A stretch of DNA of 64,000 nt from Escherichia phage TH09. The stretch lies in sequence record MT446387.1. One strand, 5' to 3'. Positions 1,209-54,592 of this stretch are shown here, one piece after another. The notes under the pieces were generated by a model, which worked only from the letters and a program-made list of their open reading frames with translations, had not been told where the DNA came from and ran no database searches. Both the position numbers and the translations under genes were made by a program. Positions within the stretch are counted from its first letter, which is position 1. Each line of letters starts with the position of its first letter.

Positions 1209-1235
1209 TTTTCTATCAGTTAAGAGGAGAATAAC

Positions 1236-1697
1236 ATGACTATCAATACAGAAGTTTTTATCCGTCGAAATAAGCTTCGTCGTCATTTTGAGTCGGAGTT
1301 TCGTCAAATTAACAATGAGATTCGTGAGGCATCAAAAGCAGCAGGGGTCTCATCGTTTCATCTAAAATATTCTCAGCATCTTCTTGATCGTGCAATTCAA
1401 CGGGAGATTGATGAGACATATGTTTTTGAATTATTCCATAAAATAAAAGACCATGTTTTAGAAGTTAATGAATTCCTGAGTATGCCTCCGCGTCCTGACA
1501 TTGACGAGGATTTTATTGATGGGGTTGAATATCGTCCTGGACGTTTAGAAATCACAGATGGAAATCTTTGGCTTGGATTTACGGTTTGTAAGCCTAATGA
1601 GAAGTTCAAAAACCCGTCACTTCAATGCAGGATGGCAATTATCAACAGTCGTCGTTTACCAGGAAAGGCTTCTAAAGCAGTAATTAAAACTCAATGA
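1236..1697 (+). CDS. regB: RegB site-specific endoribonuclease (cleaves GGAG in early mRNAs)
   Basis: 153 aa, N-terminus MTINTEVFIRRNKLRRHFESEF matches my recollection of T4 RegB; syntenic position upstream of tk. Confidence 0.65.
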   Translation: MTINTEVFIRRNKLRRHFESEFRQINNEIREASKAAGVSSFHLKYSQHLLDRAIQREIDETYVFELFHKIKDHVLEVNEFLSMPPRPDIDEDFIDGVEYRPGRLEITDGNLWLGFTVCKPNEKFKNPSLQCRMAIINSRRLPGKASKAVIKTQ

Positions 1698-1704
1698 GGT
1701 AAGC

Positions 1705-2250
1705 ATGAGAAAAGCACTACTCGCTGGTCTATTGGCCATTTCAATGATGGCACATAGCTCCGAGCATACTTTCAGTAATGTCCAACTCGATAACATGCGT
1801 TACGCGTATCAATTCGGGGAACAGTTTTCTAAGGATGGAAAATATAAAACACACAAAAATATCCACAAGAGCGGATTAGGTCATATAATGGCTGCTATTT
1901 TATGGCAAGAAAGCTCTGGCGGAGTTAATTTAAAATCTAAACCAAAGCATCACGCCTACGGAATGTTCCAAAATTATTTGCCTACTATGCGAGCAAGAGT
2001 TAAGGAACTTGGTTATAATATGACCGATGCTGAAATAAAAAGAATGTTGAATAAACGGTCCAATTCAGCTTCCTGGGCGTACATTGAACTTTCTTATTGG
2101 TTAAATATACATAAGGGCGATATAAGAAAAGCAATATCCTCTTATAATTCGGGATGGAATGTTAAAGCAGGTTCTAAATATGCTTCTGAAGTCCTAGAAA
2201 AGGCTAATTACCTTAAAAATAATAAACTTTTGGAAATAGTAAATGACTAA
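1705..2250 (+). CDS. secreted lytic transglycosylase-like protein (SLT domain)
   Basis: N-terminal signal peptide; SLT-like motifs WQESSG, GMFQ, YNSGWN. Confidence 0.55.
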   Translation: MRKALLAGLLAISMMAHSSEHTFSNVQLDNMRYAYQFGEQFSKDGKYKTHKNIHKSGLGHIMAAILWQESSGGVNLKSKPKHHAYGMFQNYLPTMRARVKELGYNMTDAEIKRMLNKRSNSASWAYIELSYWLNIHKGDIRKAISSYNSGWNVKAGSKYASEVLEKANYLKNNKLLEIVND

Positions 2251-2584
2251 AATTTTGGTTTTATGTATAGGATTAATTTCATTTTCTGCGTTAGCAGATA
2301 CATCATATACTGAAATTAGAGAGTATGTAAACCGTACTGCAGCGGATTATTGCGGGAAAAATAAAGCATGCCAAGCTGAATTTGCGCAGAAATTAATATA
2401 TGCATATAAAGACGGAGAAAGAGATAAATCAAGCAGATACAAAAATGATACACTGTTAAAACGATATGCTAAAAAGTGGAATACCTTAGAATGTTCAGTT
2501 GCGGAGGAGAAAGATAAAGCCGCTTGTCATTCAATGGTTGACCGTTTGGTAGATTCTTATAATCGAGGATTGAGTACTAGATGA
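2243..2584 (+). CDS. secreted hypothetical protein
   Basis: 113 aa with signal peptide MTKILVLCIGLISFSALA; Cys-containing. Confidence 0.45.
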   Translation: MTKILVLCIGLISFSALADTSYTEIREYVNRTAADYCGKNKACQAEFAQKLIYAYKDGERDKSSRYKNDTLLKRYAKKWNTLECSVAEEKDKAACHSMVDRLVDSYNRGLSTR

Positions 2585-3060
2585 TTGTAAAATATATCAA
2601 GGGCGATATTGTCGCCCTATTTCTTCAAGGTAATATTATTGCGCACGGGTGCAATTGTTTTCATACTATGGGTTCAGGTGTAGCGGGTCAATTAGCAAGA
2701 GCCTATCCCAAAATTTTAGAAATAGATAAAACCACTACTGAGTACGGTTCTCGTGATAAATTAGGCGATATGTCTATTGTTTTTAAACATAAACCTAATG
2801 GTTTTGGCATATGTTATAACTTGTATACGCAATACGAACCAGGTCCTAATCTTGATTATGGTGCTTTAGTAAACTGCATGATAGAATTAAATCTACAGGC
2901 AGAAACCCTTTTGTTTAAACCGGTAATTTACATTCCACGCATAGGTTGTGGTATTGCTGGCGGCGATTGGGATAAGGTTTCTAAATTAATCGACATGTTT
3001 ACTCCTGATATTGATTTAATAGTGGTGGATTATGAAAGTACATTACCCGCATCCGTTTGA
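2581..3060 (+). CDS. macro-domain protein (ADP-ribose binding/processing fold)
   Basis: motif IKGDIV...NIIAHGCNCFHTMGSGVAGQL and CGIAGG typical of macro domains. Confidence 0.6.
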   Translation: MIVKYIKGDIVALFLQGNIIAHGCNCFHTMGSGVAGQLARAYPKILEIDKTTTEYGSRDKLGDMSIVFKHKPNGFGICYNLYTQYEPGPNLDYGALVNCMIELNLQAETLLFKPVIYIPRIGCGIAGGDWDKVSKLIDMFTPDIDLIVVDYESTLPASV

Positions 3061-3244
3061 TCCTAAAAACAAAGCAGTAATTATTCGTCAATGGGAACGC
3101 ATTTGCCGTACTAAATGTCCAATTAATAGTCCACATGATGTAGATAAAGACTACATTGGAACATTCGTTGAATATACTTTTATTGATAAGAAAGGTCGTA
3201 AACAACATGTAGAAGAATATTGCTTAAAGGTTACATGGTTATGA
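3032..3244 (+). CDS. hypothetical protein
   Basis: 70-aa ORF overlapping upstream gene end. Confidence 0.35.
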   Translation: MKVHYPHPFDPKNKAVIIRQWERICRTKCPINSPHDVDKDYIGTFVEYTFIDKKGRKQHVEEYCLKVTWL

Positions 3245-3447
3245 GCCAAACTAGTATTCTTAAAAATGCCCACTGTGAAAAGTGTAAGTGGCCTGTTGTT
3301 TTTGCTTTATGCAACGATGAAATGGCTTGTGATTTCGATTATTGGTGCTATTGTTCTAATAAAGGATGCATCAATCATAAAGGTGAAGGATTTTATTCAG
3401 GATTTTATCCTTATCCTGATTTCGTTAAAGAAGGTAAACCAAAATGA
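3241..3447 (+). CDS. Cys-rich putative zinc-binding small protein
   Basis: ATGA stop/start overlap; CEKC...C..C...CYC...C pattern. Confidence 0.4.
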   Translation: MSQTSILKNAHCEKCKWPVVFALCNDEMACDFDYWCYCSNKGCINHKGEGFYSGFYPYPDFVKEGKPK

Positions 3448-3629
3448 ATAATTTTGAGTTACAATACGAAGTGTTACGTGAGCTTGATAATTTAATTGAA
3501 CTCGCTGTTAATAAAGGTTTTGCCATTGGAATCGGTCAAAAAGATACTGGTCATTTAACTATGGAAATATTTAAGCAAAAGCGAATTATTTTAAAACTCC
3601 TGGAAATTAATATATATGAGTCTGAGTAA
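3444..3629 (+). CDS. hypothetical protein
   Basis: 61-aa ORF, ATGA overlap with upstream. Confidence 0.4.
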   Translation: MNNFELQYEVLRELDNLIELAVNKGFAIGIGQKDTGHLTMEIFKQKRIILKLLEINIYESE

Positions 3630-3801
3630 AGAACAAAAAGATAAATTGTTTGAGCTTATCCATGAACTTCTAGATGAGCATATAGAAGCAAACACTTTTT
3701 ATGATGAATACGGCCCGCTATCTCCAGAACAGCAGGAAGAATTTGCTGATCGGTTTGATAAGAAAGAAAACGAATTAATAGCTTATGTGAATACGCTTTA
3801 A
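3616..3801 (+). CDS. hypothetical protein
   Basis: 61-aa acidic ORF. Confidence 0.4.
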   Translation: MSLSKEQKDKLFELIHELLDEHIEANTFYDEYGPLSPEQQEEFADRFDKKENELIAYVNTL

Positions 3802-3810
3802 GAAGGTGAT

Positions 3811-4392
3811 ATGGCGAGTTTAATTTTTACTTATGCAGCAATGAATGCTGGAAAATCTGCTTCTCTTTTGACTGCTGCACATAATTATAAAGAACGTGGA
3901 ATGAGTGTATTAGTTCTTAAGCCTGCTATTGATACTCGCGATTCTGTCTGTGAAGTTGTTTCTCGCATTGGAATTAAACAGGAAGCGAATATTATTACAG
4001 ATGATATGGATATTTTCGAGTTCTATAAATGGGCTGAAGCACAAAAAGATATTCATTGCGTATTTGTAGATGAAGCTCAGTTTTTAAAAACTGAACAGGT
4101 GCATCAATTAAGTCGAATTGTTGATACATATAATGTTCCTGTTATGGCTTATGGATTAAGGACTGATTTCGCTGGAAAATTGTTTGAAGGTTCTAAAGAA
4201 CTTTTAGCGATTGCAGATAAACTTATTGAACTAAAGGCAGTTTGTCATTGCGGCAAAAAAGCGATTATGACAGCTCGATTAATGGAAGATGGAACACCAG
4301 TTAAAGAAGGTAATCAAATCTGTATTGGTGATGAAATTTATGTTTCTTTGTGCAGAAAACATTGGAATGAATTAACTAAAAAGCTCGGTTAG
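3811..4392 (+). CDS. tk: thymidine kinase
   Basis: 193 aa; P-loop AMNAGKSASLL; C-terminal CxxC...C zinc motif; matches T4 Tk. Confidence 0.9.
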   Translation: MASLIFTYAAMNAGKSASLLTAAHNYKERGMSVLVLKPAIDTRDSVCEVVSRIGIKQEANIITDDMDIFEFYKWAEAQKDIHCVFVDEAQFLKTEQVHQLSRIVDTYNVPVMAYGLRTDFAGKLFEGSKELLAIADKLIELKAVCHCGKKAIMTARLMEDGTPVKEGNQICIGDEIYVSLCRKHWNELTKKLG

Positions 4393-5825: not shown

Positions 5826-6020
5826 ATGCTAACACGTGAACAGTTTGAAAAAATCATTAAATTAGCACGTGATATTGAAATAGATTCATACCAATTGGCA
5901 GTTGAACATTGTGAAGGATATTCATATGATGGTATAGAAGCAGCTAAAAAGGATTTGGACAAATCTAAAGCTAAATTAGTTCAATATCTTGAAATGATTA
6001 GGTGGAATAATGAAAACTGA
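5826..6020 (+). CDS. hypothetical small protein
   Basis: 64-aa ORF. Confidence 0.4.
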   Translation: MLTREQFEKIIKLARDIEIDSYQLAVEHCEGYSYDGIEAAKKDLDKSKAKLVQYLEMIRWNNEN

Positions 6021-6183
6021 AAAGCAGATGTTTTTAATGAAGCTAATTGAAGAATATGCTAATGCAGTTTCTGACTATGAGTATTCTGCTCGGGAAAGAG
6101 GTACGGCTTTCGCAAAGGAAGAAATGAAAATCATGGTTGATGCTCACACAAAGCTTCAGAATTTTATTGAAAACGTCATTTAA
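6010..6183 (+). CDS. hypothetical small protein
   Basis: 57-aa ORF not in track; ATG preceded by aggtgg SD. Confidence 0.3.
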   Translation: MKTEKQMFLMKLIEEYANAVSDYEYSARERGTAFAKEEMKIMVDAHTKLQNFIENVI

Positions 6184-6185
6184 TG

Positions 6186-6215
6186 GTTTACAAGTTGGCA
6201 AGGTTATGGTATAGT
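6186..6215 (+). promoter_or_regulatory. early promoter (GTTTACA-N17-TATAGT)
   Basis: ggtttacaagttggcaaggttatggtatagt with imperfect inverted repeat around the -10. Confidence 0.5.
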
Positions 6216-6243
6216 AATCTTGTCAACTGTCAAGGAGAAGAGA

Positions 6244-6351
6244 ATGAAAATTTTGTTTGTTGTGTATGTGATGATTCAATATAATTACCCAATGTTTACT
6301 TATAATCTGGTGAACAACATTATTGATATGATTCAGAGGAGTATACAATGA
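6244..6351 (+). CDS. small hydrophobic peptide (about 35 aa)
   Basis: strong SD caaggagaag; MKILFVVYVMIQ...; ATGA overlap with next gene. Confidence 0.3.
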   Translation: MKILFVVYVMIQYNYPMFTYNLVNNIIDMIQRSIQ

Positions 6352-6893
6352 TGAGTGAGGCGAAACGATTAGTATTAGAAGTTAGTTCACTTTTTGGTGA
6401 ATTGGCTATAGAAAAAGTAAATAATATGTATCGTTTGACACAAGAAGACGATATGCTATATTTTACGCCTAACGAAATTGTTCGTTTAACCCAAATTGAA
6501 AATTCTTATACTGATAAAATTGTAAGCATTAATGATGAGCATAAAATTCATTTCTATTCTTTATGCCCAGGATTTAATATTGAAAGCGAGTCAATATGCT
6601 TATCAATTAATAATTGGGATAATTTTATAACTAAGATTAAATATTTTTATTATTCTAATGAAAGAAAACATAGTTTAAAATGGTTTAAAAATTGCAATGC
6701 TATTATTACTAACGCTTGCAATCAGAATGATGAAACTGTTTTAAACGTATCAAAATGTTATGAAGATGGAGATGTCTTAACTATTCGTCAAATTGATGAT
6801 TCTCGAGCACATATTGTCACATTTACCAAAGACGAAGCTATTGCACTAAAGACTTATCTTGATTCTGTTATTCCAACTATGATTTCAAAGTGA
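6348..6893 (+). CDS. hypothetical protein, paralog A of a tandem pair
   Basis: 181 aa; shares GFNIE and C-terminal ...EA.A.K.YL..V.P.M motif with the next ORF. Confidence 0.5.
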   Translation: MMSEAKRLVLEVSSLFGELAIEKVNNMYRLTQEDDMLYFTPNEIVRLTQIENSYTDKIVSINDEHKIHFYSLCPGFNIESESICLSINNWDNFITKIKYFYYSNERKHSLKWFKNCNAIITNACNQNDETVLNVSKCYEDGDVLTIRQIDDSRAHIVTFTKDEAIALKTYLDSVIPTMISK

Positions 6894-6899
6894 GGAAAT

Positions 6900-7421
6900 A
6901 TGTTTATTTCAAGTGGAAGCGGTTTAATTCGTGTTGAATTTAAAAATGACATCTTCCTTAGTCAAGGAGATGATATTATTAAAATGAGTTATGACGAAAT
7001 CAAGAAAATTTGTCATACTCTTGAAAGCCGTGGAAAAGTAAATGCTGTTATTGACATCGGTGATTTATGGGTAACTCTTTATGAAGTATCCGAAGGATTT
7101 AATATTGAAGATGAAAATAACATCTTAGCTATTGATAAAAGAACTGATTTGCTTGATGTATTAAAAGCCTATGAACAGTCAAATGGTGGAAGAAAAGCTG
7201 TATTGATTTATCAAAAACCGCATTCATGTGGAACTGCTTCAATCATTTCAAATATTGAAGGCGAAGCTGATACTTATATGTGTGTTTTAAAAGCTGGTGG
7301 TGACCGTCATCCGGATTTTATTTCTATTCGTCAAAACAATGAAGAAATTTCATTATCAAAATCAGAAGCTGAAGCGATGATTAAGTATTTAACAACCGTT
7401 ACGCCTTCAATGAAAGGATAA
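6900..7421 (+). CDS. hypothetical protein, paralog B of a tandem pair
   Basis: 173 aa; similar to 6348..6893 (EGFNIEDEN; SEAEAMIKYLTTVTPSM). Confidence 0.5.
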   Translation: MFISSGSGLIRVEFKNDIFLSQGDDIIKMSYDEIKKICHTLESRGKVNAVIDIGDLWVTLYEVSEGFNIEDENNILAIDKRTDLLDVLKAYEQSNGGRKAVLIYQKPHSCGTASIISNIEGEADTYMCVLKAGGDRHPDFISIRQNNEEISLSKSEAEAMIKYLTTVTPSMKG

Positions 7422-8895: not shown

Positions 8896-8897
8896 TA

Positions 8898-8922
8898 GGG
8901 AGCCTTCGGGCTCCCTTTTTTA
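8898..8922 (+). terminator. intrinsic terminator hairpin + U-run
   Basis: gggagcc-ttcg-ggctccc followed by ttttttt. Confidence 0.65.
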
Positions 8923-10646: not shown

Positions 10647-10699
10647 GTTTACAATACCGTTCCTCTGTGGTACTATACAACTATCAACTACGGAGGAAC
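10647..10699 (+). promoter_or_regulatory. early promoter + stem-loop cassette (PeSL-like); 3' arm carries the SD
   Basis: gtttacaataccGTTCCTCtgtggtactatacaactatcaactacgGAGGAACa; 7-bp arms gttcctc/gaggaac flank the -10. Confidence 0.55.
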
Positions 10700-10704
10700 A
10701 CAAA

Positions 10705-11232
10705 ATGAACGCTAAAGATATTTTCAACCTGGTAAATTACAACGATGGTAAATTTAAATCAGAAGCACAAAGCAAGTTCTTTAATGACATCTCAATTGGA
10801 GGTGAAATCACTGTTGATGGAGGACAAATTTACAAATCCCGTTGGAATTGGATCGTTATTATTGACGAGATCGGTATTGTAGAAATTTACAAGAATACGA
10901 ATAAAAATCGTACATTACACTGGTCTCGTGATACTAACGAACAGTACAAAAAGGATAAAGCATCTAAATTATCTCGTGTAACTCAAGAAGATATTGAGTT
11001 CATCAAGAAAGATATTTTGATGTATGATAACTTAATTGCTGAAGAGCAAGCTGTTATTGATAAATTTGACGAGATTAAAGCTTCTCGTGAAATTCCTGAT
11101 TTTATGAAAGAATCAGTAAATGAACGATACAATCTCATTTCAGAGCGTATTGAAACTTACAAAAAGCAAAGAGCTGAACGCCAGAACACTCTTCGGAAGT
11201 TTGAAGAACGGTTAAAGACGGTACTCGCATAA
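10705..11232 (+). CDS. hypothetical protein with C-terminal coiled coil
   Basis: track ORF 10645..11232; start moved to ATG 10705 after cassette SD ggagg; C-terminal heptad-like ...ETYKKQRAERQNTLRKFEERLKTVLA. Confidence 0.45.
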   Translation: MNAKDIFNLVNYNDGKFKSEAQSKFFNDISIGGEITVDGGQIYKSRWNWIVIIDEIGIVEIYKNTNKNRTLHWSRDTNEQYKKDKASKLSRVTQEDIEFIKKDILMYDNLIAEEQAVIDKFDEIKASREIPDFMKESVNERYNLISERIETYKKQRAERQNTLRKFEERLKTVLA

Positions 11233-11287
11233 CCGCTTTATACCAAGGATGGTATAATGGTTCTAAGCCCTTTTAATTGAGATTATT

Positions 11288-11695
11288 ATGAAACAGTTGA
11301 TAATTAAAAGATTGAATTTATTGATATGTTGTTTATGTATAGCAATTGCATATGGTTATTATGCTATTAATGATTATATGCATTATAAAGATTATGATGT
11401 TACTGTAGTTAATACCTTTACAGGAACTCAAGGAAAGGGGTCTAGTTTATCGTTTATTGCCGTATATGAACTAAATGACGGTTATAGATTTAGCGAATAT
11501 ATTTCACCGGAGATGTATTCTTCAATAGAAAAAGGTGATAATATTACTGTAAGTTTACGTCCTTTCGACGTAAAACAGACATTGTTTGATAATATTGTTT
11601 GGTTCTTTGGAATGGTATTAGTTCAATCTGTGTGTGGTGCTTATATAGTCTGTTCCATCTTATTCTGTATATTTAGTAAAATTGAAATTGAGTGA
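11288..11695 (+). CDS. membrane protein (N- and C-terminal TM segments)
   Basis: 135 aa; hydrophobic N-terminus LLICCLCIAIAYGYY and C-terminus. Confidence 0.45.
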   Translation: MKQLIIKRLNLLICCLCIAIAYGYYAINDYMHYKDYDVTVVNTFTGTQGKGSSLSFIAVYELNDGYRFSEYISPEMYSSIEKGDNITVSLRPFDVKQTLFDNIVWFFGMVLVQSVCGAYIVCSILFCIFSKIEIE

Positions 11696-11702
11696 GGAAA
11701 AT

Positions 11703-12590
11703 ATGTCAGTAGTAATTAATAATGTCAATGCAGTAATTAAATCTTTAGTTAATAAAAAATTGAATGAATGGACTGTACTTCGTCGTGGAGAGCCAGATAA
11801 ATTTTTTCATAGATTTAACCCAACTTTGGATTTGAATGTTATTGACAGAGATGTTCATGCAGAAATTTTAGATAAGTTTAAAGTTGATATTGGATTTGGA
11901 TTAGAAAAACATTTACAGCGAACAAACGGATCTGGAATGAGTTTATCTAATCGCATTATGAAAGCACTTAATAAAATTGGAGCATTGTCTCGTATTAACG
12001 CGAGTGAAATCCTTCGCAATTATAATAAAGGATACGACCTTTATGGTCGACTAATGCCGAAATTATCATTTGACCAAATGATTGCGGATTTGTGGGAAAA
12101 TCAACGACGATTATTAGCATTAGGCGCTCGATTAGCTAAAGGTCTAGATAAACAAATGATTTTTAAGACCAATAATACAGAAGACCTTAAATGCTTTAAA
12201 TTTAGTATTCGCGGAGATGATTATTACATCAGAGCTCGCTCTACAGATTATGTTAATATGGGGCATCATCTCTGTTTAGCTTTTGAAGTTTTAAAAGAAG
12301 TCGGAACATTAGAATATTCATCTGGTGCAAAATGTCCAATTGGTTCAAGTTGTATTTTAATTTATCGCCCGGATGAATCCAGTTCAACTAAATTGCCTAC
12401 AAAACCTGTACCAGTTCGTAGTAACGAAAAACATTCTGAACAAATTGATTATTTTAATAAGCAAATTGAAGAGCTGAATATTTCTATTCAACAGTATGAC
12501 GATGAAATTTTCAGACTATCTGGATTGAGTAGTAAAGCTAAATCTGAGCGTGAAAAATTAATTAAAATTGTTGATTTACTTAAATCTTAA
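11703..12590 (+). CDS. hypothetical protein with C-terminal coiled-coil tail
   Basis: track ORF 11682..12590; ATG 11703 after gaggaaa SD; C-terminus ...IEELNISIQQYDDEIFRLSGLSSKAKSEREKLIKIVDLLKS. Confidence 0.45.
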   Translation: MSVVINNVNAVIKSLVNKKLNEWTVLRRGEPDKFFHRFNPTLDLNVIDRDVHAEILDKFKVDIGFGLEKHLQRTNGSGMSLSNRIMKALNKIGALSRINASEILRNYNKGYDLYGRLMPKLSFDQMIADLWENQRRLLALGARLAKGLDKQMIFKTNNTEDLKCFKFSIRGDDYYIRARSTDYVNMGHHLCLAFEVLKEVGTLEYSSGAKCPIGSSCILIYRPDESSSTKLPTKPVPVRSNEKHSEQIDYFNKQIEELNISIQQYDDEIFRLSGLSSKAKSEREKLIKIVDLLKS

Positions 12591-12598
12591 GGAACACT

Positions 12599-13624
12599 AT
12601 GAAAACTCGTTCTCAAATTGAAGATATGGTTCGTAATGCCAGCTATACTCGTGATGTTATGACATTTTTGTGCCAAAATAATTTAGACCCTGATAAAGTT
12701 AATCGTGATATTCACTTTAAGTATATGAATAGCAGTGAATGGTTACGTCATTTTGATAAAGCTGGATATATTACACAAATGACTGCTCGTGAGCAGCTCA
12801 CCGATTTCTGTAAAACTATTGATTATAAAAATCCTCTATTTGTTCAAGGCGTCGGTCAGAGTAAGGTTGATTTATCAACAGGATTTTTTAATCCAAATCA
12901 TTATCGTCTTGAATGGAGATTTATTGCTCTATTCCGTAAACAATTAAAGCAAATTTTGTCTACTGCTAGTCGATTAAAAGGCTCTGATATTAACTTAAAG
13001 AATTTGAAATTTGATGGTTATACTCTTCAGATGGAAGTAAGACCGTTAAAAGAAAATAATAGAACTGCACGAATTAGCTTTAAACCTAATACAAAAAATT
13101 CTCTTTCAATTTGTGAATGTCTTAAATCACAGTTGACAGAAGCATTTAAGTATATGGATGTTGTTGCTGCTGTTCAATCTAAGATTTTACCTCGTTTTGA
13201 ACGATTTAAATTAGACACAACAACATATGAACTTGATATGGTTGTTTCATTTAAATATGATTTTTTGAGAAAGGACGAAGTCCCGCAAGAGAAAAAGCAG
13301 GAAGTACAAGATAACTTAAATTTAAATTTATCCAATTACTTATCAAACGATCCTAAATTTTGGATGTATAGTTCAGGTAATAAAGATGCATGGAAATTTA
13401 ATAAAGTGAATTTTCTTCCTATTGAAAATCCGAGTCTTAAACCTGTTGAAAAATGGCATGCAGATGCGATTGAGAAGTCTATCAAGGCAGTAGATGATGA
13501 ACTCGTTAAAGCAACTAATGAAGTGCTAGAAGCTGAAAAGATGTTGGAAAAAGCTCAAGAAAAAGTCAAAAATCTTACGAAGCAACGTTCTAAACTGAAC
13601 AATGCACTAAATGCACTGAACTAG
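12599..13624 (+). CDS. hypothetical protein with C-terminal coiled-coil tail
   Basis: 341 aa; C-terminus ...VLEAEKMLEKAQEKVKNLTKQRSKLNNALNALN. Confidence 0.45.
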   Translation: MKTRSQIEDMVRNASYTRDVMTFLCQNNLDPDKVNRDIHFKYMNSSEWLRHFDKAGYITQMTAREQLTDFCKTIDYKNPLFVQGVGQSKVDLSTGFFNPNHYRLEWRFIALFRKQLKQILSTASRLKGSDINLKNLKFDGYTLQMEVRPLKENNRTARISFKPNTKNSLSICECLKSQLTEAFKYMDVVAAVQSKILPRFERFKLDTTTYELDMVVSFKYDFLRKDEVPQEKKQEVQDNLNLNLSNYLSNDPKFWMYSSGNKDAWKFNKVNFLPIENPSLKPVEKWHADAIEKSIKAVDDELVKATNEVLEAEKMLEKAQEKVKNLTKQRSKLNNALNALN

Positions 13625-13653
13625 TTTACTTTGCCACAAGGATGTGGTATAAT
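13624..13653 (+). promoter_or_regulatory. early promoter (GTTTACT-N17-TATAAT)
   Basis: agtttactttgccacaaggatgtggtataat; 31/32 identical to promoter at 58748..58777; lies within the 3' end of the upstream gene. Confidence 0.55.
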
Positions 13654-13681
13654 GTTCTTACTTTCTACTGAGGAGATTAAT

Positions 13682-14683
13682 ATGACTCGTAACGAATATA
13701 TCAAATCATTCAATAGCGTTATTGATGATAAAGCTATACCGATGTTTGGTCAAAATATCGTTCTTTCTATTATCAATCAATGGCTCAATAGTGTTGATGC
13801 AAGTATTGTTTCTTCTACTAAATTTATTCATGAAATTCGTAAAATTTCTAGCCGTGTAGATAAAGATGTTATCAAGAAAACTTTTAAAGAGTCTCGTCTT
13901 CTTTCATATTTGGTTAATCGGGATATTCTTGGTAATTTTGGGAAAGAAATTAAACGAACCAAAGATGTAGTAGGATATAATTGGTTCGGTGATGTTAATT
14001 CTTATCATCTTAATAATAAAGAAGACCCTGAGAATATTTTTACTCGTCGTTGGATTAGTAATTTCAGACTTTTCAAAGGACAAATTCTAAAATCAGCTTC
14101 TAAATTATGTTATGGCGATTATCGTCAAATTCATCCTTTGGCTTCTGATATGATTATCGTAAAAGAATATGAGCTTGATGAAAATAAAGTAGCTATTTTT
14201 GTGAATTATGGATTTTTTACACCAAACGCTAACCAAAAGAATATTAATAAATTTTTCTCAATTGCTAGCACTATAACTCGTCAGTTAGAGACTGCATTAC
14301 TTTGTATGGAAACAGTAGAAAATATTCATACATATCCTTTTAAGAATATATGCGGATGGGAAGGATATAAAATTGTAATTAGTCTTCGTGAAGTGAAATG
14401 TGCTTATTCACTGACTGATAAAGAAATTTACCAACAAAAATGTGATGAAATTGTGAATACTCCTAAAGAAGAAACTACCCTTGAGGAATTAATGGAATGT
14501 CTTGACGATTCACCTGAATCGGTAGAAATTCGTCCAGAAGTTATTGCACTAGAAAAAGCTTATAAAGAAGTTCTAGAAATTTCTAATAAAGCGCAGAAAG
14601 AATATGAGCAGGCTAAAAAGATTTGGGAAGAATCTGTCAATCGCTTGGATCGTCTTGAACAAGCTTTACAGTTAATTAAGTAA
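13682..14683 (+). CDS. hypothetical protein with C-terminal coiled-coil tail
   Basis: track ORF 13631..14683; ATG 13682 after gaggag SD; C-terminus ...KAQKEYEQAKKIWEESVNRLDRLEQALQLIK. Confidence 0.45.
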   Translation: MTRNEYIKSFNSVIDDKAIPMFGQNIVLSIINQWLNSVDASIVSSTKFIHEIRKISSRVDKDVIKKTFKESRLLSYLVNRDILGNFGKEIKRTKDVVGYNWFGDVNSYHLNNKEDPENIFTRRWISNFRLFKGQILKSASKLCYGDYRQIHPLASDMIIVKEYELDENKVAIFVNYGFFTPNANQKNINKFFSIASTITRQLETALLCMETVENIHTYPFKNICGWEGYKIVISLREVKCAYSLTDKEIYQQKCDEIVNTPKEETTLEELMECLDDSPESVEIRPEVIALEKAYKEVLEISNKAQKEYEQAKKIWEESVNRLDRLEQALQLIK

Positions 14684-14735
14684 TTTAAAGCCAAGGATGG
14701 CTCGGAGCATAAATCATTAACCAAGTGAGAAGAAC

Positions 14736-15665
14736 ATGAAAACTCGTAAACATTACATTGATTATTTTGACAGTCTTATTACTAAACATCGTAATTATCA
14801 GATCGGACACAGAGCAGTAATCAATAATATTCTTCGTGATTTCCTTCAATATGTTGGCCAGGAAAATCATATCTGTAAAGATACTCAAAACGCTTATTCT
14901 CATTCGTTAGGTAATTTGCTTGAATGGTTTAAACGTTCTCGTATGTTATCTTCTACTGTAGCTCACGATAACATTAAAAACTTTATGAAGCCGAGCTTTA
15001 TTAAATCTGAGACATCTATAACCGATTTGGTTGAATTTACTATTGTTAACGATGTTAAAAAGACTCATTTGGCTGATTGGTTATCTACCATTCCTGAAAC
15101 TAAATTTGCTGATAAATTTGCTTGTCAATTCAATGACCAAGTGAATATGCTTTTTAAGCATGCTCGCAAACTGTTTACCGCGGGTGATGACCGTACAAAT
15201 ACAGTTCATGTTAAGGACTGGGTTATTGCTGATGAAGTAACACACAAGCCAGGTGGTTCATCAGTATTAATTAATATCCAGGTTCCTTATTATTACTCAC
15301 GTAATCTCGGCACCATGACAGCTAAAGAAATTAATAAGCACAACAAAACTATTCGTTCGTTGTCTTATAAACTCCGCATGATGTTAAAAATTATGGACGT
15401 AGTGGAAATGTATGACGAAACCGAAGATAATGGTTCAATGTTATACAGTTCACGCATTCTAATTAAACTGAAGAACCCTAATACATATAAGACAGTTGTA
15501 AAAGAGCCTAAAGTAGAAAAGGTTGATAATCTGAGTGAAGAACGTGAATATCTCAATGCCCGTTTGATTGAAGTTGAAGCCCAAATTGCAGAACACACCA
15601 AATTGTTAAAAGCTCTTAATGCAAAAGCAAATGGTTTACGTAATGCTATTGAGGTATTGAAATGA
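14736..15665 (+). CDS. hypothetical protein with C-terminal coiled-coil tail
   Basis: 309 aa; C-terminus ...[41 protein letters not shown]. Confidence 0.45.
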   Translation: MKTRKHYIDYFDSLITKHRNYQIGHRAVINNILRDFLQYVGQENHICKDTQNAYSHSLGNLLEWFKRSRMLSSTVAHDNIKNFMKPSFIKSETSITDLVEFTIVNDVKKTHLADWLSTIPETKFADKFACQFNDQVNMLFKHARKLFTAGDDRTNTVHVKDWVIADEVTHKPGGSSVLINIQVPYYYSRNLGTMTAKEINKHNKTIRSLSYKLRMMLKIMDVVEMYDETEDNGSMLYSSRILIKLKNPNTYKTVVKEPKVEKVDNLSEEREYLNARLIEVEAQIAEHTKLLKALNAKANGLRNAIEVLK

Positions 15666-16051
15666 AAAAGCGTTTATTAGAAGACATTGCAGCTTCAAGT
15701 AATTCCAGTTTAATTAAAATTATTATGGCTGGTGAGGAAGATGATATGGAAATGCGTGGAAAGATTCACGGCTGCGACGATTTAGATTTTAAACCTCCAG
15801 CATGGGATGCTATTATGGTTATGGTTGAACGACGTGAAAGAGCTTCTAAAAACGTTCCTAATTGCCCTGAATGCGGTACTGAACAAGTTCAATTGATTAA
15901 CTGGCGTAAACCAGAGCTTGAATATAAATGCCGTCAATGTAAACATAAATTCAGTAAGCATGCTCCGGAAATGGTTAAATTGCCTGACTCTACTGAGTTC
16001 TTTAAAGAACTTGTGAGTGTTCAACCAATGCCTAATAATATTTTGGATTAA
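15662..16051 (+). CDS. zinc-ribbon-containing hypothetical protein
   Basis: 129 aa; CPECG...CRQCKH. Confidence 0.4.
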
Positions 16052-16053
16052 AA

Positions 16054-16296
16054 ATGACCAAGCGTAAAGAATATATGGAGACTGCTGAAAAGGCAGTCCG
16101 TGAATTAGCAATAGCTTATTATAATGAACACGGTAAATTTCCTGATAGATGCAGCGTGCTTAAATCTGCTTTAACTCGTTCATACAAAAATATGCTATCA
16201 GAAGTAAGTGATATTATATACAAACATAAAGAACAAACAGGCCAAAGTCTTGATTACGATGAGACTTTTAAACAAGTACTAGGAATTAAGGAATAA
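16054..16296 (+). CDS. hypothetical protein
   Basis: 80-aa ORF directly upstream of nrdC. Confidence 0.4.
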
Positions 16297-16297
16297 T

Positions 16298-16561
16298 ATG
16301 TTTAAAGTATATGGTTATGATAGCAACATCCATAAATGTGTGTATTGTGATAATGCAAAGCGTCTTTTGACCGTGAAGAAACAGCCGTTTGAATTTATCA
16401 ACATTATGCCGGAAAAAGGTGTTTTTGATGATGAGAAAATCGCTGAGCTTCTGACTAAACTAGGTCGTGATACTCAAATCGGCTTGACAATGCCCCAGGT
16501 ATTTGCTCCTGATGGAAGTCATATTGGTGGATTTGACCAACTGCGAGAATATTTTAAATGA
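16298..16561 (+). CDS. nrdC: phage thioredoxin/glutaredoxin NrdC
   Basis: 87 aa; active-site CVYC; MFKVYGYDSNIHKCVYCDNAKRL matches T4 NrdC. Confidence 0.85.
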   Translation: MFKVYGYDSNIHKCVYCDNAKRLLTVKKQPFEFINIMPEKGVFDDEKIAELLTKLGRDTQIGLTMPQVFAPDGSHIGGFDQLREYFK

Positions 16562-16773
16562 TGCTCGAAGGAACTGACTATATTCATGATTACCGCGGAA
16601 GCGCGGTATATGTAGGTGATGAAGTTGCAGTTTATTATGGGTATGGAACTTTGATGACAGCCAAGGTTATTCAAATTAAAAATAACCGTGCTAAACTTGA
16701 AGTTTATTATTCTAATGGCGAAAAGTCTATTTCTAAGTGGAAATATGGCGATTGTATGGTTAAACTGGGGTAA
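16558..16773 (+). CDS. hypothetical small protein
   Basis: 71 aa, ATGA overlap with nrdC. Confidence 0.4.
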   Translation: MMLEGTDYIHDYRGSAVYVGDEVAVYYGYGTLMTAKVIQIKNNRAKLEVYYSNGEKSISKWKYGDCMVKLG

Positions 16774-16775
16774 AT

Positions 16776-16946
16776 ATGATTTACGATATTAGTGTATCAA
16801 GAACTCCGTCAATGGTTACTATTCCAGCCGAAGAACTAGATCGTCTTCAGAAAATTGAAGAACTTCTTTGGGAAATTGAATGTGACCTGCCATCGGGGCT
16901 AGAATCCTGGATTGATGATGAAGAACTTAATAAATTGCGAAATTAA
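16776..16946 (+). CDS. hypothetical small acidic protein
   Basis: about 56-aa ORF not in track; ATG 2 nt after upstream stop. Confidence 0.3.
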   Translation: MIYDISVSRTPSMVTIPAEELDRLQKIEELLWEIECDLPSGLESWIDDEELNKLRN

Positions 16947-16956
16947 TTGGTGAAAA

Positions 16957-17277
16957 ATGACTATTGAAAATAAATTAGATGTTGATGCAGTTCTGAGCGA
17001 AATCATTGAAGACCATGATGCATTTTCGGAAAACTATGATTTCGATTTTTCCGATTATCTTAAACCTGTCGAAATAGAAGACTGGGTGCAAGATGGTAAA
17101 TGTCAATATCGTCAGTGTGTTTACTTTAGTCCAAAACATAATGTACATGTGGCTGTAAATGAATCTCGGTCAGGTTCTTATCATTCTGACTGGTATTATG
17201 CAGTTCCGACTGTTGAACTAGTCGAGCCCCATGAACGTGTAGTAACTCAGACAGTACGAGAATGGATTACGCTATAA
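16957..17277 (+). CDS. hypothetical protein
   Basis: 106-aa acidic ORF. Confidence 0.4.
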   Translation: MTIENKLDVDAVLSEIIEDHDAFSENYDFDFSDYLKPVEIEDWVQDGKCQYRQCVYFSPKHNVHVAVNESRSGSYHSDWYYAVPTVELVEPHERVVTQTVREWITL

Positions 17278-42044: not shown

Positions 42045-42677
42045 ATGATTTATTATATGCACAAAAATCCACCGTTTAAATACGGTAAATTTCCTGATGC
42101 ACAATGTTATAATATAACGCCTGATGAAAATAACCGTGGATATCTTATTGGCACAATTTTTGTAATTGTTAAAGATAACGAAATCGTTGCCTGGGCAGAT
42201 TTTAAAGGTACAACATATGATGTTAATCCGGTGCCTTTCACATATTACAATTTAATGGATTTGGCATACGATTATAATTGGTTTAATCATGACACTTTGG
42301 CTCATATTGAAGGTGTAGGATTTGATATTTCATATTCGGAATACACTTTAAGCCCTATGAGTCGAGCCCATAAAGAACCTGAATATTTTTCATTTAGGAA
42401 ACGTGTAAACTTTAAACGCAGCACAGAGTATGTCGGTGGAATATTTGTTAAAGATAATCGAATTACTCGCATTATTTATCCTTTGGGCTGTGGTCAAAAA
42501 GATATTGATGTTAATTTAGACTTTACTGAAAACATCATTAATCATATTGCTTCTGTGTATTTTGGTATCGATCACAAAATTGTAATATGTGGATATGAAT
42601 TACCGTTTGAAGAACAGCCTAAAGTAAAAGTTTCTATTGACGATCAAATTTTTAATGCTTTTATGAATAAAGGTTAA
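42045..42677 (+). CDS. hypothetical protein (61.2-like position)
   Basis: 210 aa; C-terminus SIDDQIFNAFMNKG shared with next ORF. Confidence 0.45.
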   Translation: MIYYMHKNPPFKYGKFPDAQCYNITPDENNRGYLIGTIFVIVKDNEIVAWADFKGTTYDVNPVPFTYYNLMDLAYDYNWFNHDTLAHIEGVGFDISYSEYTLSPMSRAHKEPEYFSFRKRVNFKRSTEYVGGIFVKDNRITRIIYPLGCGQKDIDVNLDFTENIINHIASVYFGIDHKIVICGYELPFEEQPKVKVSIDDQIFNAFMNKG

Positions 42678-42683
42678 TATGTA
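42631..42683 (+). repeat. direct repeat copy 1 (about 50 bp) at gene junction
   Basis: tctattgacgatcaaatttttaatgcttttatgaataaaggttaatatg; near-identical copy at 42989..43041. Confidence 0.7.
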
Positions 42684-43035
42684 TAGTTCTGAATTTTCAT
42701 ATTTAAAAATGGAAAAAATTTCATACGATTTTATAGATGAAAAGGTTTATTACAGTTTCCATGAACCGCGTTTTAATAGTGAGGTTGGGTTTATTGTAGT
42801 AAAAGACAATTTCATTTTAAAGATATATTCGGCATTAAAGGATTTTCACTATGAAAATATTAACCTAAAATTTGATAAAGAAAACGTTCGTAATTGTGCA
42901 GTAACAATTACAGGAAATAAAGGTACGTGTGTTATGCTATCTGATGAAATTAATGATTTGCTAAATGATGCAGAAAATATTACTGCGCCATCTATTGATG
43001 ACCAAATTTTTAATGCTTTTATGAATAGAGGTTAA
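42679..43035 (+). CDS. hypothetical protein bracketed by direct repeats
   Basis: 118 aa; C-terminal 14 aa nearly identical to upstream gene. Confidence 0.45.
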   Translation: MYSSEFSYLKMEKISYDFIDEKVYYSFHEPRFNSEVGFIVVKDNFILKIYSALKDFHYENINLKFDKENVRNCAVTITGNKGTCVMLSDEINDLLNDAENITAPSIDDQIFNAFMNRG

Positions 43036-47865: not shown

Positions 47866-48489
47866 ATGATTATTAATCCTGCAGATGTTGAACAGTTATC
47901 TATAAAAGCTGAAAGCGTTGATTTTCAATATGATATGTATAAAAAGGTCTGTGAAAAATTTACTGATTTTGAGCAGTCTGTTCTTTGGCAATGTATGGAA
48001 GCAAAAAAGAATGAAGCTCTTCACAGACAGTTGAATAAAATCATTAAAAAGCATTTAACTAAATCGCCTTATCAATTATATCGTGGTATATCAAAATCGA
48101 CAAAAGAACTTATTAAAGATTTGCAAGTTGGAGAAGTGTTTTCAACGAACAGGGTAGATTCATTTACTACTAGTTTGCATACAGCGTGTTCTTTTTCTTA
48201 TGCTGAATATTTCACTGAAATAGTACTTCGCTTAAAAACTGATAAAGCTTTTAATTATTCTGACCATATCAGCGATATTATACTTTCTTCTCCTAATACT
48301 GAGTTTAAGTACACGTATGAAGATACTGATGGGTTAGATTCAGAAAGAACTGATAACTTAATGATGATTGTACATGAACAAGAATGGATGATTCCAATTG
48401 GAAAGTATAGAATAACTTCTATTTCAAAAGAAAAATTACACGATTCATTTGGAACATTTAAAGTTTATGATATTGAGGTAGTTGAATGA
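47866..48489 (+). CDS. modB: ADP-ribosyltransferase (ModB-like)
   Basis: 207 aa; ART R-S-E motifs YRG, STN/STS, EQEWMIP; size and position as T4 modB. Confidence 0.6.
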   Translation: MIINPADVEQLSIKAESVDFQYDMYKKVCEKFTDFEQSVLWQCMEAKKNEALHRQLNKIIKKHLTKSPYQLYRGISKSTKELIKDLQVGEVFSTNRVDSFTTSLHTACSFSYAEYFTEIVLRLKTDKAFNYSDHISDIILSSPNTEFKYTYEDTDGLDSERTDNLMMIVHEQEWMIPIGKYRITSISKEKLHDSFGTFKVYDIEVVE

Positions 48490-49088
48490 AATACTCAGTA
48501 ATGCAACTAAAAGATTTTAAAATAAAATCAATGGATGCATCGGTGCGTGCTTCTATTCGTGAAGAATTACTTTCTGAAGGGTTTAATTTATCTGAAATTG
48601 AACTTTTAATTCATTGTATTACTAATAAGCCAGATGACCATACTTGGTTAAATGAAATAATCAAATCTCGTTTGGTTCCAAACGATAAACCTCTTTGGAG
48701 AGGTGTTCCAGTCGAGACTAAGCAGGTGTTAAATCAAGGAATTGATATTATTACATTTGATAAAGTCGTATCAGCTTCATATGATAAAAATATAGCTCTA
48801 CATTTTGCTTCCGGTTTAGAGTATAACACACAGGTTATTTTTGAATTCAAAGCTCCTATGGTATTCAATTTCCAGGAGTATGCTATAAAAGCTCTACGCT
48901 GTAAAGAATACAATCCAAACTTTAAGTTTCCGGATAGCCATCGTTATCGTAATATGGAATTAGTTTCAGATGAACAAGAAGTAATGATACCAGCTGGAAG
49001 TGTATTTAAAATTGCAGATAGATATGAGTACAAAAAGTATTCAACATACACTATCTATACTCTTGATTTTGAAGGATTTAATCTATAA
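48486..49088 (+). CDS. modA: ADP-ribosyltransferase (ModA-like)
   Basis: 200 aa; motifs LWRG, SAS, EQEVMIP; paralog of upstream ORF. Confidence 0.6.
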   Translation: MKYSVMQLKDFKIKSMDASVRASIREELLSEGFNLSEIELLIHCITNKPDDHTWLNEIIKSRLVPNDKPLWRGVPVETKQVLNQGIDIITFDKVVSASYDKNIALHFASGLEYNTQVIFEFKAPMVFNFQEYAIKALRCKEYNPNFKFPDSHRYRNMELVSDEQEVMIPAGSVFKIADRYEYKKYSTYTIYTLDFEGFNL

Positions 49089-53599: not shown

Positions 53600-54037
53600 A
53601 TGATTAAAAATAATGCTGTTTATCAATTGAAAAAATTTGATGAAATTAAGAATTTTTCGGTACTGTCTAATACAGCTCATAATAAGTTTTGTGAACTTCT
53701 TGGTTTAACTGGCGGATATCCTTTTACTGTTATTAGTGTTAATAGCGGAATTCTTATCGGTATGATGTATATTGAAATTAGAAACTATTATGGAATGGTA
53801 TCACCGCTTATTATTTATGAAAAAGATTTTAGTCTATTGACAGAAATTGAAAAACCTGAAGATCCAACTGATCTGCTGTGTAAGGCAGTTTATATTCGTC
53901 GTCCATTCGCGAATCCTGTGGGTGGATGGGTGACTGATCAGTGGATTGAAGATGGTGTTGAACTTCTGAACGTAGTTCATGCTGGAGAGTACTCTGTAGT
54001 TCCTCGCAGCGCAGTGATTAATGTTCGTGTAAGCTAG
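53600..54037 (+). CDS. hypothetical protein, paralog 1 of tandem trio
   Basis: 145 aa; C-terminal ...GGWVTDQWIEDGVELLNVVHAGEYSVVPRSAV. Confidence 0.45.
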   Translation: MIKNNAVYQLKKFDEIKNFSVLSNTAHNKFCELLGLTGGYPFTVISVNSGILIGMMYIEIRNYYGMVSPLIIYEKDFSLLTEIEKPEDPTDLLCKAVYIRRPFANPVGGWVTDQWIEDGVELLNVVHAGEYSVVPRSAVINVRVS

Positions 54038-54066
54038 TTTACAAACTCTTGGGACCAGAGTATAAT
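54037..54066 (+). promoter_or_regulatory. early promoter (GTTTACA-N17-TATAAT) inside inverted repeat
   Basis: gtttacaaactcttGGGACCagagtataatGGTCCtg. Confidence 0.5.
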
Positions 54067-54109
54067 GGTCCTGCGGAGTATAAATCTTAACAACAAAGAG
54101 AGAAAAATT

Positions 54110-54583
54110 ATGATTACTATCGGTGAAATTAAGCGTGTATCGTCTGCATCTCGTTCTAAAGCTGCAGGTCGTCTAGTTGAAGTGGTAGGACTTCGTACTA
54201 ATGGTACTGGTCGTGTTAAAGAAGTTAAAGTTCGAATCATTCCTAGTTCTGGAAAAACTGAAACTCAGTACGCTTACGTAAGTCCTAAATTTCTGGAAAC
54301 TCGTGTTAGCTCTCATTTTGCTTCTGTTGAAGAAGTTGAATCCACTGAGTCTAATACACAATTTAAATGGGCGTTGTGTAAAGGCGTTGAATTTGTAACT
54401 GATGAAGAATTCGATTATATTGATGATTTCGCTGGTCCAAGTAAAACTGATAGGATGTGTGGCTTCATCACAGACCAATGGGTTGAAGATGGTAAAAAGC
54501 TATACAATATTGTATTTTTAGGTGACTTCCGGGTTGTTGAAGAATCTGAAATCACTCGTTATGCTTCTCCTCGTAAAGCTTAA
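54110..54583 (+). CDS. hypothetical protein, paralog 2 of tandem trio
   Basis: track ORF 54065..54583; ATG 54110; SRSKAAGRLVEVVGL and CGFITDQWVEDGKKLYNIVFLGDFRVVEESEI. Confidence 0.45.
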   Translation: MITIGEIKRVSSASRSKAAGRLVEVVGLRTNGTGRVKEVKVRIIPSSGKTETQYAYVSPKFLETRVSSHFASVEEVESTESNTQFKWALCKGVEFVTDEEFDYIDDFAGPSKTDRMCGFITDQWVEDGKKLYNIVFLGDFRVVEESEITRYASPRKA

Positions 54584-54592
54584 GGAATTATT

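Follow-up and report, generated by a model that had tools for sequence, protein, structure and literature searches.

The 64,000-nucleotide stretch of Escherichia phage TH09 DNA analysed here (sequence record MT446387.1), hereafter called the window, contains between positions 10,705 and 15,665 a run of five open reading frames (ORFs), A to E, which are the orthologs of the phage T4 genes nrdC.8 (A), nrdC.6 (B), nrdC.5 (C), nrdC.4 (D) and nrdC.3 (E). The proteins B, C, D and E are ancient tandem paralogs which constitute a single, Straboviridae-specific family of T4-type phage proteins. It is reasonably likely that the nrdC.x region as a whole forms a counter-defence cluster, in which these paralogs associate a rapidly diverging body, devoted to the selection of the target, with an oligomerising tail. 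Many Tequatrovirus (T4-like) genomes match the 5.1 kb region at 97-99% identity and, judging from its sequence, the window can be assigned to a T4-like Tequatrovirus; the gene names were assigned from the T4 reference annotation and by direct sequence comparison. The five ORFs, all of which possess ATG starts and GGAG-type ribosome-binding sites, had been correctly located in an earlier examination of the bare sequence (the original prediction), which described them as uncharacterised nrdC.x genes of T4. The assignment to nrdC.x holds; the adjective is outdated for nrdC.5, nrdC.8 and nrdC.1.

The evidence for a single family comes from the bodies of the proteins. D and E are already related by plain BLASTP (27.5% over 160 amino acids (aa), E-value 5e-6 in a small database), both match phrog_1435 from end to end (6.4e-168 for D and 2.1e-116 for E), and all D and E homologs carry PF26897 according to precomputed annotation. 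C matches another family, PF23882 (DUF7235), over residues 1-341 with 409.7 bits and an E-value of 1.2e-122, the gathering threshold being 30 bits; in the Pfam search, A, B, D and E stayed below the reach of the DUF7235 model. Profiles were compared with hhalign using alignments collected from database matches and syntenic loci, with 63 sequences of the D type, 55 of the C type, 30 of the E type, 9 of the B type and 5 of the A type; those of B and A are shallow, and all E-values correspond to single pairwise runs. At full length, significant alignments were obtained for D with E (probability 98.4%, 1e-14, 211 columns), for C with D (94.3%, 9.6e-8, 247 columns), and for B with the pooled C, D and E profile (87.3%, E-value 3.8e-6, 204 columns, residues 82-294 of B on 61-333 of D), and reversed-sequence controls reached at most 0.7%, with P of at least 0.08. 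The alignment of B pairs motifs such as LSRINAxxILxNYxKG with SRLLSxxVARDxLxxFGK, and ARLAKG with ILKSAxKxxxGD. Since coiled-coil segments can inflate profile scores, the comparisons were repeated after removal of the tails: D with E (98.5%, 3.5e-15, 211 columns) and C with D (92.8%, 3.9e-7, 176 columns) hold fully, and B with the pooled profile gives a weaker signal (37.5%, P 3.5e-4, 72 columns), still above the reversed controls, so that a coiled-coil bias was discarded as the source of the homology. Conversely, the tails alone align weakly in every pair (P 0.002-0.16), even in the clearly homologous D and E (P 0.11); with significant bodies and non-significant tails, the homology signal is located in the bodies. 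C, D and E thus very probably belong to one family, and B is, with only slightly less assurance, its most divergent member.

This result reverses the premise of the original prediction, namely that a shared tail was carried by N-terminal regions of 250-300 residues devoid of mutual similarity: in B to E it is the bodies that are detectably similar and not the tails, and profile comparison of the N-terminal domains yields one family with its own C-terminal helix, an outcome which the prediction had itself listed as refuting it; only the body of A stays unlinked. At the DNA level, the best blastn stretches among the five genes cover 28-31 nucleotides with E-values of 0.01 or worse and represent short repeats at chance level. 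This absence of DNA similarity in any pair, which had been rightly noticed for the tails, implies that the duplications are not recent.

The tails are nonetheless genuine features of these proteins, as originally proposed. A fixed criterion applied to the last 35 residues (heptad score of at least 0.6, at least 40% charged or polar residues, at most one Pro/Gly) selects 5 of the window's 67 non-overlapping plus-strand ORFs with 100 aa or more, exactly A to E. The heptad score is a home-made one, distinct from standard predictors such as COILS, Marcoil and DeepCoil; in its best register, the a/d phasing of each of the five tails exceeds that of 5000 composition-preserving shuffles (p of at most 0.003), and the power at a period of 3.5 residues is marginal for the tails of A (p 0.058) and E (p 0.076). 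The a/d positions are mostly occupied by L, I, V or A across six heptads, and the last 45 residues of B, C and E contain at most one Pro/Gly each. An unbroken single helix occurs in the AlphaFold2 (AF2) models at residues 285-332 of D, with a predicted local distance difference test score (pLDDT) of 71-86 per 10-residue block, and at residues 132-174 of A. B, C, D and E all terminate just past a helix closing with h-x-x-A-[L/I]-x-x-L-K, which reads LKNALxALK in variants of C; A ends with ...RLKTVLA, which differs from this closing motif. Among the orthologs of any one protein, conservation of the tail equals or slightly exceeds that of the body. What the tails have in common is chiefly their composition and phasing, and a shared sequence module was ruled out by the non-significant tails-only comparisons, even for D and E; those of B to E appear homologous from their position and from the same closing motif at the end of the protein. 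The shared tail of B to E reflects common descent of the whole proteins rather than a module grafted onto unrelated bodies.

The fold of the family is represented by D, the sole member modelled with an alignment (58 sequences of the superfamily). The AF2 model of D (mean pLDDT 83.5, predicted TM-score 0.68) consists of an alpha/beta body spanning residues 1-240, with a helical N-terminal part (3-84) followed by a mixed alpha/beta region (88-235), a low-confidence linker at about 250-284 (pLDDT below 50 at 261-284), and the 48-residue terminal helix. Compared with the viral models of BFVD, it matches the protein named nrdC.6 of phage JS10, which is of the B type (E-value 1.2e-5, prob 1.00), together with proteins of 300-370 aa from T4-like phages of Acinetobacter, Klebsiella, Erwinia, Serratia, Pectobacterium and Enterobacter (E-values 1.5e-7 to 1.2e-5). 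The matches to JS10 nrdC.6 and to the distant Straboviridae have a probability of 1.00 and TM-scores of 0.37-0.50, and matches among family models combine large root-mean-square deviations (rmsd) with decent TM-scores. Judging from these models, the B to E proteins probably share a three-part plan, in which a body of alpha/beta type (about 240 residues) is followed by a low-confidence, presumably flexible linker (about 35-40 residues) and an amphipathic end helix (about 45 residues). The comparison of the D model with PDB structures gave no convincing match, and no enzyme family was recovered for B to E in the Pfam, NCBIfam, PDB-sequence or PDB-fold searches. In addition, the near-invariant positions of the 58 sequences are mostly hydrophobic, the charged ones being restricted to R3, D146 and K239; an enzyme function was rejected as improbable on these grounds. 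Residues 30-86 of E (approximately 14823-14993) show a sub-threshold match to the phage-integrase N-terminal SAM-like domain (Pfam E-value 0.076), and the N-terminus of E weakly matches tyrosine recombinase and XerD N-terminal models (NCBIfam E-values 0.002-0.015), a hint of possible resemblance between its helical bundle and a DNA-binding core-binding domain.

Protein A stands apart. When compared by hhalign with each family, with the pooled profiles and with the bodies only, it displays no significant link to B to E (P 0.04-0.46), and a Foldseek search of the viral structure library with its single-sequence model found no member of the family; these comparisons lend no support to the idea that A is a truncated member. 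The AF2 model of A, built from the single sequence without alignment, has a pLDDT of 65.5, with a low-confidence, beta-rich N-terminal region and a confident part made of two long helices, 94-126 and 132-174. As modelled, A would be a separate, smaller protein whose layout is unlike that of B to E. The product of nrdC.7, located between A and B, also lies outside the family; it is a predicted membrane protein of 135 aa, recognised as such from the start, with two strongly hydrophobic segments near residues 3-27 and 103-132.

The family is old and its members are unevenly distributed. In the Dhakavirus VR5 and the Gaprivervirus UPEC07, the slot is occupied by A, B, a 71-aa ORF, a C-like protein and a D ortholog, and both E and nrdC.7 are absent. 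In Acinetobacter phage Acj61 (Twarogvirinae), a tandem pair, p120 (330 aa) and p121 (304 aa), sits between nrdC and nrdC.10. Their lengths equal those of two consecutive UniProt entries matched by the D model, and both proteins end in long amphipathic helices, with p120 closing in ...LNKALEIMML. The presence of such a pair in the same slot indicates an old origin for the family as well as for its tandem organisation and its location. The Acj61 genome, which thus has two NrdC.5-like members, also harbours adjacent nicotinamide phosphoribosyltransferase and ribose-phosphate pyrophosphokinase genes (1229-3938). This enzyme pair is associated with the reconstitution of nicotinamide adenine dinucleotide (NAD+) by phages facing NAD-depleting defences. 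The number of phage records with a match in translated searches (tblastn) is 745 for A, 741 for B, 653 for E, 581 for C and 553 for D; a sequence search of representatives with B gave 11 matches, and a related-locus search with D gave close relatives only.

Between genera, identity amounts to 45-52% for B, 43-51% for D and 24-27% for C, compared with 78-86% for nrdC, nrdC.1 and nrdC.11: the family diverges far faster than the neighbouring genes. The ratio of nonsynonymous to synonymous substitution rates (dN/dS) is 0.08-0.26 for C and D, above that of nrdC.6 and nrdC.8 to nrdC.11 (0.00-0.14). E is 60-61% identical to T4 NrdC.3, against 91-100% for the neighbouring genes, and its allele classes within Tequatrovirus are about 60% identical, with a synonymous divergence (dS) of about 1, against 91-100% for the flanking genes. 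E is also 96-99% identical in some close relatives, and at least three identity classes are distinguished by tblastn (at least 93%, about 75-78% and about 60%). The gene nrdC.2 (15662-16051), which overlaps E, encodes 129 aa here and 104 aa in T4, with identities of 60-99%; nrdC.3 and nrdC.2 are mosaic hot spots. In the protein P0131, encoded on a 167 kb contig, a natural fusion ORF joins residues 145-273 of C to E from about residue 136 onward; the two parts meet at a microhomology (KVN/QVN) and are not in homologous register, and the tail of C, all of D and the N-terminus of E are lost, which illustrates how easily array members disappear. Similarly, in the IMG/VR record UViG_2974742932 (5971-7003), vB_EcoM_G8, ESh18 and T2, nrdC.4 (D) takes the form of two ORFs or of two separate partial matches, which suggests frameshifted or pseudogenised copies and fits a dispensable gene.

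A role in counter-defence is documented for two of the five genes. In a HIDEN-SEQ preprint (10.1101/2025.11.20.689424), bas37_0203 is reported as a genuine Druantia III inhibitor and T4 nrdC.1 as an inhibitor of Septu. A is 98.9% identical to bas37_0203 over all 175 residues; Bas37 is phage KarlGJung (MZ501089), and the annotation table of the preprint places bas37_0203 between genes of the size of nrdC.7 and nrdC.9. Transposon insertions in bas37_0203, compared between K-12 and the Druantia-carrying isolate CFE303, show a log2 fold change of -5.80 with an adjusted p printed as 0.00000; the values for 0198-0202, the orthologs of E, D, C, B and nrdC.7, range from -0.21 to +0.68 and are not significant. 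On the second isolate sheet the nrdC.1 ortholog alone is depleted in this stretch; the Bas37 transposon results considered here are these two clinical-isolate sheets. The genes nrdC.1 to nrdC.11 are all non-essential on K-12 in the T4 and Bas37 transposon libraries (10.1101/2025.11.20.689424). As for C, T4 nrdC.5 is an early, non-essential gene lost in compensatory deletions, and a T4 clone with such deletions fails to plate on cells carrying Dsr1, a SIR2-type defence system from ECOR17; plasmid-expressed nrdC.5 restores the plating, the relevant passages leaving the full extent of the deletion unstated (PMC9391042). In addition, T6 Gp49.2 is an inhibitor of OLD (PMC13096335). About 6.6 kb of the window therefore hold orthologs of four reported inhibitors, directed against Druantia III, Dsr1, Septu and OLD. 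Published work thus gives the orthologs of A and C separate counter-defence roles, that of A being independent of B to E. The original guess of an anti-defence or host-takeover function is borne out for A, through bas37_0203 and Druantia III, and for C, through T4 nrdC.5 (93% identical) and Dsr1; for B, D and E it stays a prediction, to which we attribute an even chance. B to E are accessory genes, non-essential on K-12 and variable in presence and divergence among phages.

According to the proposed explanation, the locus would be part of an accessory, early-transcribed nrdC.x region acting as a counter-defence gene cluster. Given the predominance of hydrophobic residues at conserved positions and the lack of any match to an enzyme fold or family, the family members would be non-enzymatic, stoichiometric inhibitors or decoys. 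The fast-diverging body may select the host immune protein to be bound, and the terminal helix may self-associate as a homo-oligomeric coiled coil, which would render the inhibitor multivalent and confer avidity towards oligomeric defence proteins. B, D and E would be aimed at other defence systems. The oligomerisation of the tail with itself could as readily prove right as wrong.

Several observations weigh against this explanation. Insertions in the Bas37 orthologs of B, D and E are neutral on both clinical-isolate sheets (10.1101/2025.11.20.689424); nrdC.5 is the sole member of the B to E family with a demonstrated function, and for Druantia III and Septu the source is a preprint. Gene-wide positive selection was looked for and not found, whole-gene dN/dS (omega) being below 0.4 in all genes, and within Tequatrovirus both A and B show strong conservation. 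The body-only profile signal of B is modest (37.5%), the tail could pack on the body or bind something else, and the explanation does not account for the fact that A adjoins the family and possesses a heptad tail without detectable homology. It is conceivable that the family, at least as regards B, D and E and perhaps in its entirety, has some other accessory role early in infection, for instance in host takeover, in nucleic-acid transactions or in nucleotide metabolism; the effect of nrdC.5 on Dsr1 would in that case be indirect or a lineage-specific side function. The lack of phenotype of the B, D and E orthologs on the hosts of the two sheets, the overall purifying selection, the single syntenic position kept across distant Straboviridae, which fits a general role, and the weak resemblance of the N-terminal helices of E to integrase SAM-like or XerD N-terminal DNA-binding domains (E-values 0.002-0.08) all point in that direction. 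Such a role is unlikely, however, in view of the dispensability of all members on K-12, a divergence between genera far above that of the neighbours, a variable presence, a neighbourhood dense in validated anti-defence genes, and the absence of any enzymatic or DNA-binding family above threshold.

Two further alternatives concern the tail. In the original prediction, five unrelated bodies carry a similar coiled-coil tail which docks on one common partner or on the other tails, to build a joint complex. This scheme would readily explain why all five ORFs of the run, and only these in the window, end in a heptad helix, why A has such a tail within the run despite the absence of detectable homology to B to E, and why tails are conserved as well as bodies or slightly better within orthologous groups. 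It is nevertheless very improbable: the homology of the B to E bodies already accounts for four of the five tails, and the tails alone lack significant sequence similarity, even between D and E. A shared docking partner or a joint scaffold is likewise disfavoured by the genetic data, since only A is required on the Druantia III host, where insertions in the orthologs of B, C, D, E and nrdC.7 are neutral, and nrdC.5 alone in trans is enough against Dsr1 in the experiment reported (PMC9391042); moreover, copy number varies, from arrays lacking E and nrdC.7 in VR5 and UPEC07 to two members in Acj61. The terminal helix might also not be a coiled coil at all but fold back on the body, serve as a regulatory lid or bind the target directly, its heptads representing one hydrophobic face. 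The predictions are for monomers, the tail pLDDT of 71-86 is reached in a monomer and needs no partner, and a periodicity of 3.5 residues, marginal in A and E, is expected of any amphipathic helix. Against this, the helices are 43-48 residues long, come after a low-confidence linker, are nearly free of Pro/Gly and have a/d positions dominated by L/I/V/A over six heptads, and the combination of decent TM-scores and a large rmsd in the matches of family models suggests a helix whose placement with respect to the body is not fixed. We regard this alternative as rather doubtful, and the reading of the region as a counter-defence cluster built around B to E is retained.

The coordinates of the genes, tails and spacer elements are listed below.

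Features of the nrdC.x region in the window (AF2, AlphaFold2; PeSL, promoter-early stem-loop)
Feature	Coordinates	Strand	Remarks
Early-promoter-like element upstream of A	10648..10676	+	TTTACA-N17-TACTAT, TG-extended; consensus scan
A, nrdC.8 ortholog, 175 aa	10705..11232	+	98.3% identical to T4 NrdC.8; phrog_2274
A, terminal helix, residues 132-174	11098..11226	+	heptad-phased; five-residue break after helix 94-126
Spacer before nrdC.7	11233..11287	+	hairpin ACCA-AGGA-TGGT into TATAAT, CGCTTTA (MotA-box-like) ahead
nrdC.7 ortholog, 135 aa, predicted membrane protein	11288..11695	+	phrog_2547; hydropathy
B, nrdC.6 ortholog, 295 aa	11703..12590	+	phrog_2257
B, C-terminal amphipathic segment, last ~45 residues	12453..12587	+	ends ...IKIVDLLKS
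C, nrdC.5 ortholog, 341 aa	12599..13624	+	92.8% identical to T4 NrdC.5; PF23882 (DUF7235)
C, C-terminal heptad helix	13487..13621	+	ends ...LNNALNALN
Spacer before D	13625..13681	+	early-promoter-like TTTACT-N17-TATAAT overlapping hairpin CCACA-AGGA-TGTGG (PeSL-like)
D, nrdC.4 ortholog, 333 aa	13682..14683	+	PF26897 / phrog_1435
D, terminal helix, residues 285-332	14534..14677	+	ends ...LEQALQLIK; AF2 model
Spacer before E	14684..14735	+	hairpin GCCA-AGGA-TGGC
E, nrdC.3 ortholog, 309 aa	14736..15665	+	PF26897 / phrog_1435; closest paralog of D
E, C-terminal heptad helix	15528..15662	+	ends ...LRNAIEVLK
nrdC.1 ortholog	16054..16296	+	98.8% identical to T4 NrdC.1
gp49.2 ortholog	16957..17277	+	96.2% identical to T4 gp49.2

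A hairpin with an AGGA loop is common to the spacers preceding nrdC.7, D and E, and runs directly into TATAAT before nrdC.7 and D. The early-promoter-like elements located before A and D fit the PeSL promoter consensus TTTACW-N17-TAYWAT of T4 and PST (PMC4122927). PeSLs have been proposed as mediators of gene shuffling in hyperplastic regions (PMC4122927, PMC2839356), and such shuffling could cause the variable content of the array. A strong GC-rich hairpin, AGGGAGCC-TTCG-GGCTCCCT, followed by a T-run and reported on both strands, occurs just after nrdC.11 (8897-8916); this terminator-like element is probably a boundary between transcription units, upstream of the nrdC.10 to nrdC.3 block. The upstream neighbours, nrdC.11 (an RlaP-like nucleotidyltransferase), nrdC.10 (an AAA-type ATPase) and nrdC.9, and the downstream ones, nrdC.2 (a zinc ribbon protein), nrdC.1, nrdC, gp49.2, gp49.1, pin, gp49 and nrdD, are all encoded on the plus strand. 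The window holds no match to T4 gene 49.3; the slot between nrdC and 49.2 (16558-16946) contains two ORFs of 71 and 56 aa, and in Bas37 and Bas40 the same slot is filled by two small ORFs of equal lengths (216 and 171 bp), a further case of gene replacement within this plastic region. Accessory genes are commonly duplicated in tandem here: other tandem paralogs of the window are found at 6348-6893 and 6900-7421 (BLASTP 27%, 6e-11), at 42045-42677 and 42679-43035 (33%, 3e-7), at 47866-48489 and 48486-49088 (26%, 1e-13), and as three copies at 53600-55012 (32-53%, down to 1e-27). The pair at 47866-49088 is presumably the counterpart of modA/modB, which it resembles by position and size.

Many GenBank phage records label the orthologs of nrdC.3 to nrdC.8 as thioredoxins, a designation apparently spread from the gene-name prefix; the Pfam profile search found no thioredoxin match for any of the proteins of the run. 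Similarly, a DRT1 paper (2026) merely lists nrdC.8 as a down-regulated transcript and terms it a nucleotide reductase, a designation unsupported by the sequence in the same search. The correction of these widespread mislabels in public records is one outcome of the present analysis. More generally, anti-defence genes of T4-like phages have been found singly, by deletion or transposon screens, and most of them have no recognisable relatives. The anti-Dsr1 gene nrdC.5 is now seen as one of four tandem paralogs, so that nrdC.3, nrdC.4, nrdC.6 and many relatives become counter-defence candidates, located in the stretch of about 6.6 kb that already holds the Druantia III, Dsr1, Septu and OLD inhibitors, with a suggested division of labour between a body devoted to target specificity and an end helix devoted to oligomerisation. 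The result is useful and directly testable, and will not surprise a specialist.

The cluster itself is not new, as it consists of long-annotated T4 ORFs, two of which have recently been given functions. What is new, being absent from the literature searched, is the union of nrdC.3, nrdC.4, nrdC.5 and nrdC.6 (PF26897, DUF7235 and phrog_2257) in one family, the three-part plan and the conserved slot in Straboviridae; the counter-defence prediction for nrdC.3, nrdC.4 and nrdC.6 is likewise absent from it. No mention of DUF7235 or PF26897 was found in the literature search, the EVADES preprint does not mention NrdC proteins, and the Druantia-Zorya preprint mentions neither bas37_0203 nor nrdC. Pfam and PHROG keep PF23882 (DUF7235), PF26897 and PHROGs 2351, 1435 and 2257 separate and without assigned function, whereas profile and fold evidence joins them.

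Among known systems, the closest is T4 NrdC.5 itself (Srikant, Guegler and Laub 2022, eLife; PMC9391042), of which C is the ortholog and B, D and E are paralogs probably built on the same body-linker-helix plan. The passages of that paper devoted to nrdC.5 treat it as a single uncharacterised gene, with no link to nrdC.3, nrdC.4 or nrdC.6, no architecture and no mechanism. The bas37_0203/NrdC.8 protein is, like A, a small accessory protein devoid of known domains and required only on the Druantia III host; it differs from B to E by the absence of detectable homology and by its two long helices in place of a body, a linker and a single tail. A functional parallel is offered by DSAD1, a phage protein which reportedly acts by binding, without catalysis. 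DSAD1, from an SPbeta-type phage, counteracts the defence-associated sirtuin DSR2 (PMC10973363, PMC10981675, PMC11087589), and the action of NrdC.5 on Dsr1 might by analogy be modelled on it. The parallel is of function only: the target of DSAD1 is DSR2 and not Dsr1, and neither sequence nor fold is likened. Finally, the dmd-tifA-adfA "anti-TA (toxin-antitoxin) island" of T4 and its internal proteins IPI, IPII and IPIII (PMC9391042) consist, as here, of small or medium accessory genes which are clustered, variable and each directed against a different defence. The nrdC.x region differs from them in that four of its neighbouring genes are paralogs with a probable common three-part plan, whose products would be cytoplasmic early proteins devoid of a capsid-targeting signal.

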